From an uncultured bacterium (GTDB lineage: Bacteria; Babelota; Babeliae; Babelales; Babelaceae): a stretch of 64,000 nucleotides of DNA. This document shows, one piece after another, positions 12,001 to 18,000 of this stretch. Where the stretch lies: the NCBI GenBank assembly GCA_963722385.1, contig CAVRKK010000002.1, positions 1 to 64,000 on the forward strand, read 5' to 3'. Numbering within the stretch: position 1 is the first letter of the stretch; the number at the start of each line of letters is the position of its first letter. The position numbers are program-made.

Positions 12001-15000
12001 ATTGACTGGACATTCGCTTTGAGCTTTTCAAGACGCTCTTGTTCTTGATTGATCGAGACAGTAAGTTGTTCAATTTCTTGAGTGAGCAGCTTTTGTTGTT
12101 GCTCATGAGCCATCAAGCTCAGATCAGCCTCGACAAAACGGATAAACTGAGTAAATGGGTCCGTTTTCATAAAGCTCCGCTATTTTTTGGTGGGCCCACC
12201 AGGATTTGAACCTGGGACCTTTCGGTTATGAGCCGACTGCTCTAACCCCTGAGCTATGGGCCCAACTCCAAAGATTGGTATTAGTGTACTGGTTATTTCC
12301 ATTTTTATCAAATCTGGTAAAGCCTGGCTGCTGAGTCGCCTCCCGTCTAACCTCACCAAGGCTACGCGAGGGCTTGCTTGGACGAAAACCTTAAGTACTA
12401 TTATTATTATAAAATTCGCACGGAGAAAACCTAAAAGCATGGTTGGTATAAAAATGTTTTAGAAAAAGAGCTAAAACGGCGCCACTTTTTTATAAGTTAT
12501 ATAAATTTTTTACGAAAGCGTTGTTTTCTAAATTCTAAGTTTGTCATAATAACAAGCGTAGGCCTACAGAAAAGTAAAACCAAATAAACAAAAGGAGACG
12601 CTATGAAGAAGTTAGTCGTAGCAACAGTACTCAGCCTGCTCGCCGTCAGCAATGCATCAGCTTTCTTGGGCGGCCGTTGCAGCCCATGCAGAACACGTCG
12701 AGCCGTTGAAGAATGCGAAGCACGTCCACTCTGCTACAAGATGGTTCGTAAAGAATGTCCAGCAAACAAAGTGTGCAGAACGCAATGCCACTATGTTTGC
12801 CCACCTGATACCATCAGGGAAGAGTGCCCAGACGAAGAGTAAGCTCTTATTAACAAGAGAAAAAAGGGATGCGATAGCGCATCCCTTTTTTATTGCTCGA
12901 TTAAGCAGCGGGCTTAGCTGCAACTTTTTTGGCCAGCCGAGACAGCTTACGCGATGCGGCATTGGCGTGAATGAGCCCCTTGCTCTTTGCTCTTCCAAGT
13001 TTTGAGGCAACATCTCTAAAAAGAGTATCGATCTGAGCGGTTTGGCCACCATCAACAGAGGCGATAAGCTTTTTAATAGCCGTCTTAAGGGCTGATCGAC
13101 GTGCAGCATTGCGCAACCGATTCTTTTCATTCTTGCGCGCATTTTTTTTGGCTGAAGCAGAATTTGCCATACGTAATATCCTTACTTTAATAAGATCCTA
13201 TACGACCTTTTCAATCTTTTTTGCCTTAACACACTTTGTACAAACATTTCCCGCATGCACTTTGCGTATGGGCGCATTGGCCAGCACAAATCGAATCCTG
13301 TGTACATTGGGATATACCCACTTTTTCACACGGTTATTGGCATGGCTCACAATATTGCCAACCTGGGGCCCCTTGTTACAAACACAACAGATGCGTGACA
13401 TATGATTTATCCTTCATTTTTTAAGCACACGTTAATTTAACCGAACTTCAACGCGCGGTGGGATATTAAGCGCTTCGTAAATATCCTGTGCATGTACTGT
13501 TTCTTTTTCAAGCAGCAATTGAGCAAGCTTATCCAACTTATCCCGGTGCTGGACCAGCAATTCTTTCGCTTTATCATAGCATTTCTGCAATATTGAGCGA
13601 ACTTCCTCATCAATTTTGCCAGCAGTTTCCTGAGAATACTCCGGCTTACCATAAGCAGACTCCTGGTAGATGACTGGTCCAAGCGTATCGCTCATGCCAT
13701 AAACACATATCATTTGGCGAGCCATATTGGTAGCAACCTTAAAGTCGCTTGCCGCTCCTGTGGATAGCGTATTAAAAACAAGCTCTTCAGCCACACGACC
13801 TCCCAAAGCTGACATAATCGAAGCCAATATTTCTTCTCTGGTGGAGGTATACTTGTCACGGTCAGGAAGCCAGTGAGTTGAGCCAAGCGACATACCTCGA
13901 GGAATAATCGTTACCTTAAAAAGCGGGTCGGTAACGTCGGGTAATAACAACCGAACCAGCGCATGTCCAGCCTCATGAAATGCCGTCATCTGAAGCTCTT
14001 TAGGCGTAAATATTATCGAACGCACCTCTTTACCCATAATAATTTTATCGCGTGCCTCATCTATATCACCCATAAGAACCTTGTCTTGATTTTTTTTCGA
14101 AGCCGCCAGTGCTGCTTCATTAATCAAGTTAGCTAAATCGGCACCAGAAAAGCCCGGCGTCCCCCTTGCTATTTTATTAAGATTAATATCCGAAGCCAGC
14201 TTAATACGGCGTGCATGTACTTGCAAAATTTCTTCACGGCAAACGATATCAGGAAACGGAACAACTACTTTACGATCAAATCGCCCCGGCCGTAAAAGTG
14301 CGCTGTCCAACATATCAACGCGGTTGGTTGCCGCTAAGACAATGACGTCTGACTGCGCCGTATCAAACCCGTCCATCTCAGCCAAAAGCTGGTTGAGAGT
14401 TTGTGAATACTCACCCACGCTTGACCCCTTAAGACGCTGGCCACCTACAGAATCTACCTCGTCGATAAAGACAATGCTCGGAGCATGCTTACGAGCCTGG
14501 GCAAAAAGTTCACGTACTCGCGACGCACCAACACCCACGTAAATCTCAACAAAATCCGAGCCACTCACGCTAAAAAAGGGACACTGCGCTTCACCCGCAA
14601 CAGCACGAGCAAGCAAGGTCTTGCCATTGCCTGGCTCGCCAACCAATAAGACCCCACGCGGTATCTTGGCGCCAAGTTCCTTAAATTTGGCTGGTCGACG
14701 CAAAAATTCAACCACATCAAGCAACTCCTCTTTGGCATCACGCACCCCTGCAACATCCTTAAAGGTCGTCTTGACCTGGGAAGGCATAAAGAGTTTAACA
14801 TGGGCTGCACCGCGTGTTTGCAATGCTCCCGTCGCGTTATTGGTCTCCTGAGACTTAAATATTTTAAGCCGGGCCTCCTCAATGTCACTAGCCATAATAG
14901 CATCATGGCCCTTTTTAGAAGCAATCAAGGCAGCCTGGTTAATAAGATTTGCAAGCTCGGCACCACTAAAGCCAGCAGTTTCCTGGGCTAGCCCTTTGAT

Positions 15001-18000
15001 ATCCACCGTCGGTGCCAATTTGGTATCGCGTACGTGAATCTTAATAATAGCTTCGCGGCTTGCTAAATCAGGGAAAGGAACATTAATCCGATGATCAAAT
15101 CGGCCAGGCCTCAAAAGCGCCTTATCAAGCACGTCAGGTATGTTAGTTGCTGCTAATATCACCAAAGGCACGTTTTGGCTTTCAAAGCCATCCATTTCGG
15201 TCAAAAGCTGATTAAGCGTTTGTTCCCGTTCATCATTCCCGCCGCCTAAGCCAGTACCACGCTGACGACCAATAGCGTCGATTTCATCGATAAATATGAT
15301 GCTTGGCGCATGCTTACGCGCTTGGGCAAATAAGTCACGAATACGTGCTGCACCAACACCCACAAATACCTCAACAAAATCTGATCCGCTCACCATAAAA
15401 AATGGGCAATGCGCTTCCCCAGCAACTGCTTTTGCAAGCAAAGTTTTGCCATTACCGGGCTCACCTACAAGAAGAACGCCCCGAGGAAGCTTTGCTCCGA
15501 GGCGCTTAAACTTGTCAGGATGCTTAAGTAATTCTACAATATCAGCAAGCTCTTGCTTAGCCTCTTGAGCACCTGCTACCGAGGAAAAATTAACTTTTAC
15601 CTGCGTTGGCAAAATCATTTTAGCGCGGCTCTTGCCCATGTTAAAAATTGTGCTCCCTGAACTTCCTGAATTACGAGATTGACGAACCAAAAACCACACA
15701 AGAGCAGCAAAAAAAAGTAAACCACAAATGGCAAACCAGTACCATCCCAAAGCAACACTACTTTGCTCAGATAAGGTAACTTCAACATGATGCTTATTGA
15801 ATAAATCCCATTGCTGGGGGTTATTTTCCGGTATTACCACCTCAAACCGCGTTTTGCCATCACGCAACCATCCATATGCACGCTGCCCCGCTACGTGAAC
15901 CGATTTTACCTTGTTAAGCTCAATATTTTTGAGAAAGGTGGAATAGCTCATCGGCTGAGTAACCCGCGAGTATTCAGTCAGCATAAGTAAGATTCCAAGG
16001 CCAAGCAGCGCCGCCATGAGTAAGAAGATGAACTGACGCGGTCCCGCCCGAAATTGCTTAAAGTACATTTTTTGTTTCATGAGCATCCACTTATTAAAAA
16101 GCTATACTACTAATTATTAAACACTAGTATACCTGAAACTATTGTTTTGTCGACGTGTCTATCTGAGAAAGCATAAAGTGTTCAACATACCAATAACAAG
16201 TCACCAGGAACATCTTCACGCGCCTCAATCAATATTATAAAATTAATTATACCAAAATATCAAATAAATATACAGCTATAGTAATTTATAAAGGCATATG
16301 GGTCAATGGCGGCGACCAAGCAGGATAACGACAATTATCCTTACTTGACGTTACAAACGTCATATAATGAGTCTTAATGTTGAGAATCGCTATACGACTT
16401 TTGCCTTTGTCTTCGACACAAAATGCGAGCCAGGTCCCACAGGTCGACCAGGCTGGGTCAGTCTTATCAGATCGATCAAACGTTAGCTGCTCGTGGGTCT
16501 TGGTCTTCCGATTATAGAGAAATAGTTGCATATCACCTTTTACGCGCCTTGAAAAGGCAATTTTGTTGCTTCGCTCATGGCATGCCGGGCCAACATTATA
16601 TCCCTCACTTATAAGCGTTTCACGCGCACAATTGTGCGAATTATAGCACTTGATCTTCCCCTGGGAGCAATAAATAATATCCCCATTAGAGAGGATCGTT
16701 GGAGAGGCGCACGCATCTGGCTCTTTGATAAGTAGAGTATGCGTTGCCTTGCCGGCTACTGGATCATAATGATATCGCCAAATACCTCCGGACCGCCCAT
16801 AAATAATATCAGCGCCATTTGGTTGGAACGAAACCCCAGCAGTCGTCCCATCAAGATCGAGAATAATGCGGCGGTTTCCATATAAATCGACCGAAATAAG
16901 TCGGACGTTGGCGTCGGTAAACTCTGAGCAAACTAAATACGGGCTTGTTTGAGCCAAGCTCCAATAAGGGGCAACGGTAATGCGGTTATTGCTCAGCAGG
17001 ATGCGCTCATTATCACCGGCAACACTCCCAACACACAGTTGGCTTATCGATCCAAGTCGCGTATGGGGAACCTTCTTGATATAGCAGAGCCGGCTTAAAA
17101 ATGGGCCGGCGCACCCCATAAGCTCAGCCCACATATCATGCGCCAGCATGTGGGCCCAATCTTCAGGATTCCTACCTATCTTAAAGCATCGCTTTCCTCG
17201 TTCCATAGATGCCTGCGTTGTATTATAGAGCCGCCACTCAAAAGCTTTATTATCATCGGTGCTATTAATAAAAAATGCTAACACATAGCCCCGGTTATAT
17301 AACTCAGTAATCTCGTTTTTAGTCTTAGGCAAGCCTTTATGTTCCAACGTCACCGAAAACTGTCTGCCCAACTCAAGATCGGCCTTAAGAAAGGGCATCA
17401 TCAGCATAAGATCTTGGTCTTCACCGTTCAAAATGCCCATGAACAGCTTCATGCGCTTTGTCTGGTCTCCCTTCTTTGCAGGGTTATCAATGGTAATTGA
17501 TATAACCTCGGCAGGTTTAAAGAGCGCTAAGCATCCACCCGACACCGTCGCTATCATTATACCTACTATGCTGAACCACTGCATGATGCCTCGCTTATTG
17601 CTATTTAAAAGTAAGATTAAATTTTCTGCCATGCGATTTCCCCGATTGTACAATAAATCGAGCGATACTCATCGCTTGCTGGTTTTTAGCAGCAGCATAG
17701 GACTTCGTTACAAACTGCGGCTCGTGTGCAACCTTATTCCCTGGCTCCACGCTAATAATAACCGGTCCCGCTTCTTCCCAGCCCGCCAATGGCTCCCATG
17801 CTTGCTTGATTGTTTCGTAGATATCATGAGTAATCGCATAGTCGGCATCCGCTGGCGTTATCCCTTGTGATGGAATTACGTCGGTAAATTCCACTTGAAC
17901 CAGATTCTCCGCCTCGCTCAAGGGTTCCCGGCCAGGCTTGGCAAACTTTAAATCCCCTTTCTTTTGAACTACCAGCATGTTATGAGTTATTGGCTTTTTT

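Follow-up and report, generated by a model that had tools for sequence, protein, structure and literature searches.

The window that we analysed, 64,000 nucleotides of a Babelaceae contig, carries an ftsH gene with two full AAA modules. The gene lies on the minus strand at 13432-16080, and its product of 882 residues runs from a transmembrane helix through a periplasmic domain and a second transmembrane helix to the two modules (hereafter D1 and D2) and then an M41 protease (Table 1). The survey's finding of a tandem-AAA FtsH is borne out by the open frame, by the Pfam domains (AAA and AAA_lid_3 in two stretches each) and by motifs in both modules: GEPGNGKT at residues 206 and 481, FIDE at 263 and 538, and RPGRFD at 324 and 597, followed by HEAGH at 702. 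The start it gave, 16080, is the second ATG and does yield 882 residues; begun at the first ATG, two codons upstream, the uninterrupted frame spans 13432-16086 (884 residues). No other M41 gene was found in the genome (completeness 93%), in keeping with the claim that this is its sole full FtsH.

The protein has the parts of an FtsH. Pfam, hydropathy and a structure model agree on a membrane anchor of two hydrophobic helices and an FtsH_ext periplasmic domain, and a classic AAA module with Walker A, Walker B, second region of homology (SRH) and pore-1 aromatic is found twice in the chain, where the textbook FtsH has it once; this motif set is invariant in 113 of 113 homologues. On TIGR01241 (FtsH) the protein reaches 1159 bits, where 600 is the cut-off, as the sum of two stretches. 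NF008004 falls below its cut-off (903 versus 1008), as does TIGR01243 (Cdc48/p97; 458 bits versus 803), and the CDC48 N-domain is absent among the 20 Pfam families matched.

Of 265 aligned residues D1 and D2 share 163, and their DNA is 69% identical over 471 columns. At that distance they are not a collapsed or duplicated assembly repeat. The frame is open, and the same layout is seen in one frame in 49 genomes, plus 114 further or overlapping database proteins; the chance of an assembly or gene-calling artefact is negligible.

The tandem gene occupies the ancestral tolB-ftsH-rpsT locus, as do single-module Babelota genes. In the flanks examined, rpsT adjoins 38 of 49 tandem and 47 of 61 single ftsH genes, and tolB adjoins 31 and 49 of them, respectively.

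Table 1. Features of the tandem ftsH gene and its neighbourhood
Feature	Position	Strand	Basis
rpsT (ribosomal protein S20), conserved downstream neighbour	12901..13170	-	Pfam
ftsH, 882 aa (884 from upstream ATG), TM1-periplasmic-TM2-AAA(D1)-AAA(D2)-M41	13432..16080	-	Frame, Pfam, TIGR01241; genome's only M41 gene
M41 zinc protease domain, HEAGH 702-706 and D779 (presumably the third zinc ligand, by FtsH structures)	13477..14010	-	Pfam Peptidase_M41 691-868; H702, E703, H706, D779 in 113/113
AAA module D2, aa 429-683: Walker A K487, pore-1 Y514, Walker B D540/E541, sensor-1 N586, arginine fingers R597/R600; canonical lid to R677-D678 and G683	14032..14796	-	Pfam, motifs, alignments
D2 pore-2 region, diverged, aa 547-559; R549 and E557 alone retained	14404..14442	-	R549 113/113, E557 112/113, neighbours variable
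D1-D2 linker, aa 411-428; sequence variable, length almost constant	14797..14850	-	pLDDT <50 at 416-422; module spacing 268-279 aa
AAA module D1, aa 151-410: Walker A K212, pore-1 F239, Walker B D265/E266, canonical pore-2 R272-E286, sensor-1 N313, arginine fingers R324/R327; protease-side lid residues gone	14851..15630	-	Pfam, motifs, alignments
Gly/Ser-rich membrane-to-motor linker, last residue K150	15631..15672	-	pLDDT <50 at 138-150; K150 conservation
TM2, aa 110-136	15673..15753	-	Hydropathy window at 108; model helix 110-136
Periplasmic domain, about aa 40-105	15766..15963	-	Pfam FtsH_ext 19-85; model
TM1, about aa 14-36	15973..16041	-	Hydropathy window at 14; model helix 14-39
Two candidate sigma-70-like consensus matches 5' of ftsH (10 and 11 of 12 positions)	16126..16263	-	12 sites in region vs 5.9 expected by chance
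tolQ-tolR-(tolA-like)-tolB-like cluster, conserved upstream neighbour	16286..19867	-	Pfam; tolA label from position only

Conservation and predicted geometry of the two modules

Both modules keep a complete set of catalytic residues. In D1 and D2 alike, 113 of 113 tandem homologues have unchanged Walker A and B, sensor-1 and the two arginine fingers, and a second alignment of tandem proteins retains the catalytic residues of both modules in 48 of 48. The ratio dN/dS is 0.019-0.077 for D1 (12 of 13 pairs measurable) and 0.013-0.108 for D2 (11 of 13). The survey had described the motifs as intact in both modules. This is correct for Walker A and B, the aromatic pore-1 residue and the SRH; we add that the D2 pore-2 region is non-canonical.

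The modules differ in what else they have kept. K150, in the membrane-side linker, is found in 48 of 48 D1 and 57 of 61 single modules and is variable at the D2 counterpart. Conversely, R587, R639, E655, R677, D678 and G683 are present in 46-48 of 48 D2 modules and in single modules, and absent from most or all D1. D1 retains the linker on the membrane side and has pore loops of the canonical kind; D2 retains the protease-side lid, with a tyrosine at pore-1 and a variable pore-2 loop. Each has also acquired common residues of its own: A369 (43 of 48), K405 (34 of 48) and S410 (33 of 48) in D1, and Q435 (44 of 48) and Y514 (42 of 48, against 0 of 61 single modules) in D2. By this pattern of retained residues, D1 and D2 have evidently divided the old module's surfaces between them, that is, specialised. 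The M41 domain and N-terminal part, by contrast, have nearly the same consensus in 45 tandem and 42 single proteins.

D2 has lost a membrane-side residue and D1 several protease-side ones, an asymmetry that predicts a stacked geometry with D1 over D2. AlphaFold single-chain models give the same arrangement, as in p97/NVL, at low confidence (pTM 0.54 and 0.58) and with the linker left without definite structure; AlphaFold, having been trained on p97-like stacks, may merely copy it. The predicted D2-M41 part superposes on substrate-bound AFG3L2 at 2.5 Å over 450 residues. The predicted D1-D2 part fits more loosely to NVL (6.4 Å over 500 residues), Rix7 (6.6 Å over 472 residues) and p97 (8-9 Å), with TM scores of 0.62-0.64 for substrate-engaged p97 and 0.48-0.53 for most other p97 states. 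A complex prediction pairing D1-D2 (158-686) with D1-D2 up to the large domain (158-612) scored 0.00 against a mark of 0.32; its controls were not folded, and the value counts neither for nor against stacking.

Spread and history in the phylum

The tandem form is much more widespread than Babelaceae and one second family, the range first proposed. It is present in at least 52 of 261 genomes of the phylum, in 8 of 21 families, and 49 genomes have both modules in one frame. Nor is it missing from the sister species, as had been thought: same-genus G009 carries the tandem gene as well, in two pieces because of a single frameshift around residue 459-471, and loss there is ruled out. The one-module form stands at the same locus in 61 of 113 inspected relatives. 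Module spacing in the tandem proteins is 268-279 residues; 4 of 62 spacings were pattern artefacts (family f19), where domain limits give 275.

Whether loss or gain underlies this patchy spread had been left open by the survey. Our trees favour one in-frame duplication of the whole AAA module (~275 residues), early in the phylum, followed by repeated returns to a single module; the tree of the non-duplicated parts shows at least 10 switches between the two states. The Babelota modules, whether D1, D2 or single, fall into one clade (support 99), so both modules derive from the lineage's own FtsH module. An unlikely alternative, which concerns the history only, is that Babelota duplicated the module many times with convergent specialisation, or that one tandem gene spread laterally. 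Multi-module FtsHs did arise separately in other phyla and among Babelota paralogues, and D2 modules do not form one clade in quick trees. The large domain does not reject a tree that unites every tandem module (p-AU 0.24), and a separate origin of G000+G008 alone is not rejected either (p-AU 0.66, although against a poor free tree); G010, sister to that pair, has the single-module form. However, the 49 D1 modules all group together (support 94), and AU tests reject twelve independent duplications (p-AU 5e-28, with the pore loops excluded) as well as a single clade of tandem genes on N-terminus plus M41 (p-AU 0.014). The shared locus and near-constant unit length also argue against it, as does the identity between D1 and D2, which is no greater within a protein (0.60) than between proteins (0.59). 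The same figures give no general sign of concerted evolution. Identity within the protein is somewhat higher in G022 and family f13. In the quick AU tests both constrained trees outscored the freely searched one, which made these tests uninformative. When the nearest neighbours of single modules were sought among D1 and D2, the matches were mostly the slowest-evolving sequences.

Neither ClpP, Lon nor SPFH proteins track the tandem state. Across 66 Babelota genomes (32 tandem, 34 others) ClpP was found in none, and the phylum seems to do without it; Lon is in all 66, at 2-3 copies each, and SPFH proteins are in 31 of 32 tandem genomes and 30 of 34 others. None of these proteostasis genes covaries with the tandem form, and compensation for a lost protease therefore finds no correlate. 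Because 27 of 32 tandem genomes have only one M41 gene, the tandem FtsH must self-assemble and do the housekeeping job.

A probable double-ring FtsH, its rivals and known systems

We consider a type II-like double-ring FtsH the best reading of this protein, with a probability of roughly 65%. The survey had proposed it, and two elements stand: two intact, selected ATPase modules per chain, and a stacked D1-over-D2 geometry to which the AlphaFold models and the asymmetric residue losses point. Its label 'ClpB-like' is a poorer fit than 'Cdc48/NVL-like', because both modules are FtsH-type, classic-clade and from the lineage's own FtsH. In the mechanism that we propose, the housekeeping FtsH of Babelota (Dependentiae), once its AAA module had been duplicated, would assemble as six chains held together by the M41 ring and the membrane part, both unchanged, placing twelve modules in two stacked rings. 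D1, at the membrane, would recognise and engage substrates with pore loops of the usual FtsH type. D2, seated on the protease, would act as a second ATP-driven translocase with a re-tuned pore, passing the chain to the zinc chamber. Twelve gripping pore loops would give more grip and processivity than one ring, and the whole might work as a one-chain version of ClpAP or Cdc48-20S. ClpA offers a precedent, in which D1 engages and D2 unfolds (PMC8666677). The second ring probably pays only in some settings, given that several lineages have removed the length of one module and gone back to the usual FtsH; this repeated collapse in close relatives argues that the ring is dispensable at least under some conditions.

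Some evidence runs against the double-ring reading. It is the D2 pore-2 region, the loop nearest the protease, that decayed, the 61 one-module relatives do well at the same locus, and no covarying gene was found among those for ClpP, Lon and SPFH. The invariant catalytic residues could mean just that a dead ring would block the channel. A rival that we think rather unlikely is that the rings are stacked without real gain. Here drift would have fixed the duplication in a small-genome intracellular lineage and complementary losses in D1 and D2 would have made the modules mutually dependent, one ring doing most of the work while the other merely turns over ATP and leaves the channel unblocked. 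The complementary losses observed, the many state changes on the tree and the lack of a covarying proteostasis gene suit this rival, and ClpA D2 supplies about 83% of ATP turnover (excerpts of PMC7568338). Yet D2 has done more than decay, since Y514 and Q435 are more fixed than in single modules; the tandem form lasted while its modules drifted to about 60% identity, and many other lineages came to this layout independently.

A further possibility, which we regard as improbable, is one mixed ring: three chains would supply six modules, with D1 and D2 alternating as in the yeast m-AAA heterohexamer, over three protease domains only. Judging by the model, the flexible 18-residue linker is in principle long enough, and alternating unequal Yta10/Yta12 subunits do signal via the pore-2 loop (passages of PMC5438985). 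Proteins with one M41 have 2, 3, 4 or 6 modules and none has 5, in a sample (155 rows, 96 long proteins) too small for this to mean absence. Four-module forms, however, cannot tile one six-membered ring. Moreover, both AlphaFold models stack D1 and D2, and D2 lacks the membrane-side linker residue while D1 lacks the protease-side lid residues. The M41 and membrane parts keep the consensus of single-module orthologues, which suits a six-chain chamber; the M41 surface shows none of the relaxation expected if only three proteases formed the ring (5 minor differences; mean entropy, 1.46 versus 1.26).

How does the Babelota protein compare with known machines? Canonical bacterial FtsH and the m-AAA/i-AAA proteases (TIGR01241, M41; PDB 7vhp, 3kds, 2dhr, 6nyy, 6az0) have in common with it two transmembrane helices, a periplasmic domain, a classic-clade AAA module and a HEXXH plus Asp zinc site, and solved bacterial FtsHs are 50-55% identical to it. 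They are described as one AAA ring on one protease ring, with one module per chain (PMC7226402; PMC12067869), whereas here two modules share out the pore loops and lid. Solved FtsH chains have 439-644 residues (best 60 of 218 sequence matches) against 882 here, and neither those 60 nor the fold matches listed include a chain with two AAA modules and M41. Type II AAA proteins (Cdc48/p97/VAT, NVL/Rix7) also have two tandem classic-clade modules, and the predicted D1-D2 aligns with them over 470-500 residues, but they are just 33-39% identical; the Babelota protein has no Cdc48 N-domain, is membrane-anchored and carries a protease domain on the same chain. In yeast Cdc48 the D1 pore has no aromatic residue, and putting it back is lethal because too much is degraded (PMC5511170); the Babelota FtsH has an aromatic in both predicted rings. 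ClpAP and ClpCP share the design predicted here, two ATPase rings that feed a protease chamber and divide the labour (PMC8666677; PMC7568338). Their D1 is classic-clade and their D2 HCLR-clade, according to parts of the latter, whereas both Babelota modules are FtsH-type and 61% identical. They also use a separate serine peptidase, in contrast to a zinc protease and both modules on one membrane-bound chain.

The survey held the tandem FtsH to be new, and we likewise found no prior account in the literature of one with M41. The TM6 genomics paper (PMC4776705) makes no mention of protease, AAA or Clp. The nearest case is the Ycf2-like plastid Orf2971 of Chlamydomonas; no other FtsH-derived protein was found to be described with 'two AAA+ ATPase domains'. 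It has lost M41 and serves protein import (passages of PMC9421593). Its two predicted AAA stretches are only about 96 and 114 residues long (2012-2107, 2279-2392) and, in our view, may be parts of one interrupted module.

Most work on the reasons for two-ring AAA machines concerns ClpA and p97, in which the rings are ancient and very unlike each other. The Babelota modules are still about 60% identical and both look active, and sister genera have single-ring orthologues, so one and two rings can be compared in the same enzyme. The few changes that specialise upper and lower ring could be mapped, and the one-motor form of close relatives at the same genome place is a natural test of the second ring. 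This bears on the open question of whether FtsH is limited by unfolding power; that the single-ring enzyme is a weak unfoldase at all is disputed (parts of PMC9601784).

We suggest tentatively, at somewhat less than even odds, that type II FtsH is a recurring form: stacked two-, three-, four- and six-tier motors would have evolved many times, and in Babelota the essential gene would have switched between one ring and two, in both directions and repeatedly, without leaving its locus. With an aromatic pore loop in each tier, the double-ring enzyme would be a stronger membrane-bound unfoldase in a phylum seemingly without ClpP, at a cost (over-degradation, ATP use) that would drive reversions. 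If true, nature would have run, several times over, an experiment on the origin and specialisation of double-ring AAA machines. We found no paper on the other multi-module FtsH-like proteins, which have three to four modules in Muribaculaceae, three in Thermoleophilaceae, two in Melainabacteria/Cyanobacteria and six in protein P0312. Like the Babelota protein they combine a membrane anchor, 2-6 AAA modules in a row and one M41, but they have separate origins on the module tree, with unit lengths of 250-274 residues.

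Two complete AAA modules in one FtsH chain

The survey had found that the FtsH of this Babelaceae genome carries two complete AAA modules in one chain, and we agree. Pfam matches FtsH_ext, two AAA stretches, two AAA lids and M41; Walker A, Walker B and SRH occur in both modules; and TIGR01241 scores 1,159 bits against a cut-off of 600. The membrane-side module (D1) and the protease-side module (D2) are identical at 163 of 265 aligned residues, and their DNA is 69% identical over 471 columns. The protein was also said to be the only full FtsH of its genome: we too found one M41 gene, in a genome that is 93% complete.

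Coordinates of the features discussed (residues number the 882-residue FtsH)
Feature	Position	Strand	Remark
ftsH	window 13432-16080	-	single open frame, 882 aa; 884 aa from an ATG two codons earlier
Walker A	aa 206 and aa 481
Walker B	aa 263 and aa 538
SRH	aa 324 and aa 597
HEAGH	aa 702
tRNA-Met	window 12188-12263		just downstream of rpsT
DnaA-like gene	window 21988-23358		6 kb upstream of ftsH; label by look of sequence
Repeat protein gene	window 3629-7921	-	1430 aa
Two-AAA paralogues (cut-out loci)	L064:3970-6261, L065:3525-5912, L066:3352-6018, L067:3668-5953		module spacing 253-264 aa
Single-module ftsH of genome G051	L096:682-2739		N-terminal part matches twice
Split AAA domain, window's genome	G000:C2:1251393-1252131		two short frames, 156 + 100 aa; L133 covers part

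Tandem-AAA FtsH is a new form of FtsH, and it lies outside the Cdc48 and ClpA families. Among the literature matches listed, a coverage without most subscription journals and without supplements, none was found to describe tandem AAA modules ahead of an M41 protease domain; domain-architecture databases may list the layout without comment. The passages or abstracts consulted of PMC7226402, PMC9020784, PMC6460958, PMC2674469, PMC9601784, PMC8197885, PMC12067869, PMC9421593, PMC5438985, PMC7568338, PMC8666677 and PMC5511170 do not describe one. Word searches gave no hit for 'tandem' in the FtsH review (PMC9020784) and none for protease, AAA or Clp in a TM6 genomics paper (PMC4776705). The nearest protein found in print is Orf2971, which differs in having no M41 according to PMC9421593.

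Spread and origin in Babelota

Matches to this FtsH occur in 255 of 261 Babelota genomes. The names attached to database proteins confirm the placement in Babeliales/Dependentiae, while the family name Babelaceae is that of the survey. In 113 of these genomes (all high scorers, plus a spread of the others) we extracted the orthologous locus and examined it: 49 encode both modules in one frame and 61 have a single module, while another three hold a tandem gene in pieces, broken by frameshifts in G009 and G096 and by a contig end in G040. The remaining 148 genomes were judged on match score alone, and their scores fall within the single-module range. Tandem ftsH is thus present in at least 52 of 261 genomes, a lower bound because split tandem genes also score in that range. 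Every inspected member is tandem in three families (f11, 10 genomes; f13, five; f16, two), and both states are mixed in five (f1, f7, f8, f19 and f21). The earlier estimate of about half of the window's family stands (41 genomes: 21 tandem, 11 single, nine outside the inspected set); its restriction to one further family does not, given 8 of 21 families. In both states the gene lies between tolB and rpsT, in flanks that are often short.

Nor is the form missing from the sister species, as had been claimed. G009, of the same genus, has a tandem ftsH broken by one frameshift, either a sequencing error or a real break; its neighbour genes match in single frames. In-frame TGA codons or frameshifts interrupt the tandem genes of G038 (L086), G171 (L087), G009 (L050) and G096 (L117). 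FtsH is usually essential, and these breaks are therefore probably assembly errors. The single-module FtsH of G051 gives two matches to the N-terminal membrane/periplasmic part, which may reflect a partial duplication.

How often did the tandem form arise? On our best reading of the sequences, one duplication followed the split from a deep group and was itself followed by repeated collapse to the single state. The deep group includes f3, f5, f12, f14, f15, f17, f18 and f20, with no tandem orthologue among inspected members. A quick tree of the N-terminus and M41 (105 rows) mostly follows families and contains ten tandem/single changes, only two of them forced by strongly supported branches; it places the single G010 as sister to tandem G000 (the window's genome) and G008 with support 97. 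A clade of all tandem genes was rejected on this region (p-AU 0.014; 40 rows, 309 columns). The whole-module FastTree (175 rows) unites 49 of 49 D1 modules with support 94; D2 modules sit opposite, spread over several groups, and in no case is a D1 the partner of the D2 from its own chain. On the large domain with pore loops removed (58 rows, 163 columns), the best tree (p-AU 0.61) has a single duplication and derives the core single genes from D1. A clade of all tandem modules was not rejected there (p-AU 0.24); twelve independent duplications were (p-AU 5e-28). The AAA unit measures 268-279 residues across tandem Babelota ftsH. Two or three origins are possible: the trees use simple models, D2 may have converged, the D2 of G022 groups with single modules, and with non-Babelota sequences included the D2 modules of families f11 and f13 separate from other D2.

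Selection on both modules and a proposed mechanism

The tandem architecture is real, old and selected. Across 113 tandem database proteins, neither D1 nor D2 shows any change at the Walker A Lys/Thr, the Walker B Asp/Glu, the sensor-1 Asn or either arginine finger, and the zinc ligands of M41 are likewise invariant. These proteins were gathered with residues 330-520 as query, so any bias is limited to the D2 Walker A and pore-1. A genome-derived set, which may overlap with the first, has the same catalytic invariance (48/48). Moreover, dN/dS is 0.019-0.077 for D1 (13 pairs, 12 measurable) and 0.013-0.108 for D2 (13 pairs, 11 measurable), rough values because synonymous sites are near saturation. 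By these sequence measures both modules are under selection.

The two modules have also specialized. The first half of D1 resembles single modules (K150 in 48/48, pore-1 Phe in 46/48; R272, R285 and E286 in 48/48 each), as does the second half of D2, where an Arg follows sensor-1 in 48/48 versus 10/48 in D1 and the lid residues R639, E655, R677, D678 and G683 are kept in 46-48/48. Which side a residue faces, membrane or protease, we judge by its position along the chain and by the arrangement in FtsH structures. Pore-1 of D2 carries Tyr in 42/48, versus 0/61 single modules, often preceded by Lys, Met or Gln; the D2 pore-2 region is variable. The M41 consensus stays close to single orthologues, and M41 is the sole copy in 27 of 32 tandem genomes.

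An AlphaFold2 model (113-row alignment) contains two complete AAA modules (mean pLDDT 84.5, pTM 0.54); the linker at 416-422 is poorly defined. Its D2-M41 part superposes on substrate-bound AFG3L2 at 2.5 Å over 450 residues, and D1-D2 runs along p97 D1-D2 for about 490 residues at 8.1-8.9 Å. A separate D1-D2 model (46 rows; pLDDT 79.5, pTM 0.58) matches NVL (6.4 Å, 500 residues), Rix7 (6.6 Å, 472 residues) and substrate-engaged p97 (TM 0.62-0.64). In both models the relative placement has little confidence, and both may echo training structures.

We propose that six chains would assemble so that D1 and D2 form two stacked rings, both active: D1 would engage substrate at the membrane, and D2 would drive it into the protease chamber. 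From models and sequence we give this active stacked-ring FtsH a probability of about 0.65; it would probably act as a type II unfoldase does, with its own protease in the same chain. Stacked rings that bring no gain are an unlikely alternative, and a single mixed ring is less likely still. The proposed division of labour is that of ClpA, in which D1 engages substrate and D2 drives it, according to PMC8666677 and PMC7568338. In PMC5511170, placing an aromatic residue in both rings of Cdc48 kills yeast by excessive degradation, which by analogy suggests that a doubly aromatic pore carries both gain and cost. We speculate that such a cost may lie behind the tandem-to-single reversions in Babelota.

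The protease background, being alike in both ftsH states, does not explain the tandem form, and we rejected it as a reason. No ClpP was found in any of 66 Babelota genomes (65 with at least 90% completeness and at most 5% contamination; control 10/14), each of which has two or three Lon genes. The window's genome encodes two Lon, ClpB and one HflK-like protein; a search there for HslV found none. Babelota seem to make do with just Lon and FtsH.

Multi-module relatives and other features

Searching with residues 145-882, we found two to four AAA modules and one M41 in 34 of the 150 top-ranking representatives of 50%-identity clusters (24 with two, nine with three, one with four). At least two of the 24, P0168 and P0170, are not tandem in layout, and the first module is decayed in several. 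A further search added P0008, with four modules, and three more proteins with three. Among 96 long proteins one, P0312, has six modules and one M41. Named cluster members point to Muribaculaceae, Thermoleophilaceae and Melainabacteria/Cyanobacteria (organism name in 3 of 20 clusters looked up). Babelota modules, whether D1, D2 or single, make up one clade (support 99), apart from non-Babelota multi-module proteins. Three, four or six modules precede one M41 in P0008, P0055, P0069, P0099 (Muribaculaceae-type), P0112, P0123, P0125 and P0312; Muribaculaceae-type proteins have a canonical first module and middle modules with altered pore loops. Two-AAA paralogues that lack the FtsH N-terminus occur in four Babelota genomes (G108, G078, G060 and G092), and some look like separate duplications.

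Entire AAA-M41 units recur two to four times per chain in P0124, P0311 (named as a dinoflagellate protein) and P0313-P0315; P0147 reads AAA-M41-AAA-M41, with no HEXXH match in its first M41. Other long FtsH proteins, P0319-P0321, P0324 and P0325 among them, carry precomputed matches to PF14890 and PF14528, which we take to be inteins with homing endonucleases; the source name of P0352 itself indicates one. For the split AAA domain elsewhere in the window's genome, NCBIfam gave no match at the threshold applied. Finally, the 1430-residue protein of the window consists almost wholly of β-rich repeats of about 44 residues, with a signal-like start and a hydrophobic stretch at its C-terminal end, and looks like a multi-propeller surface protein.
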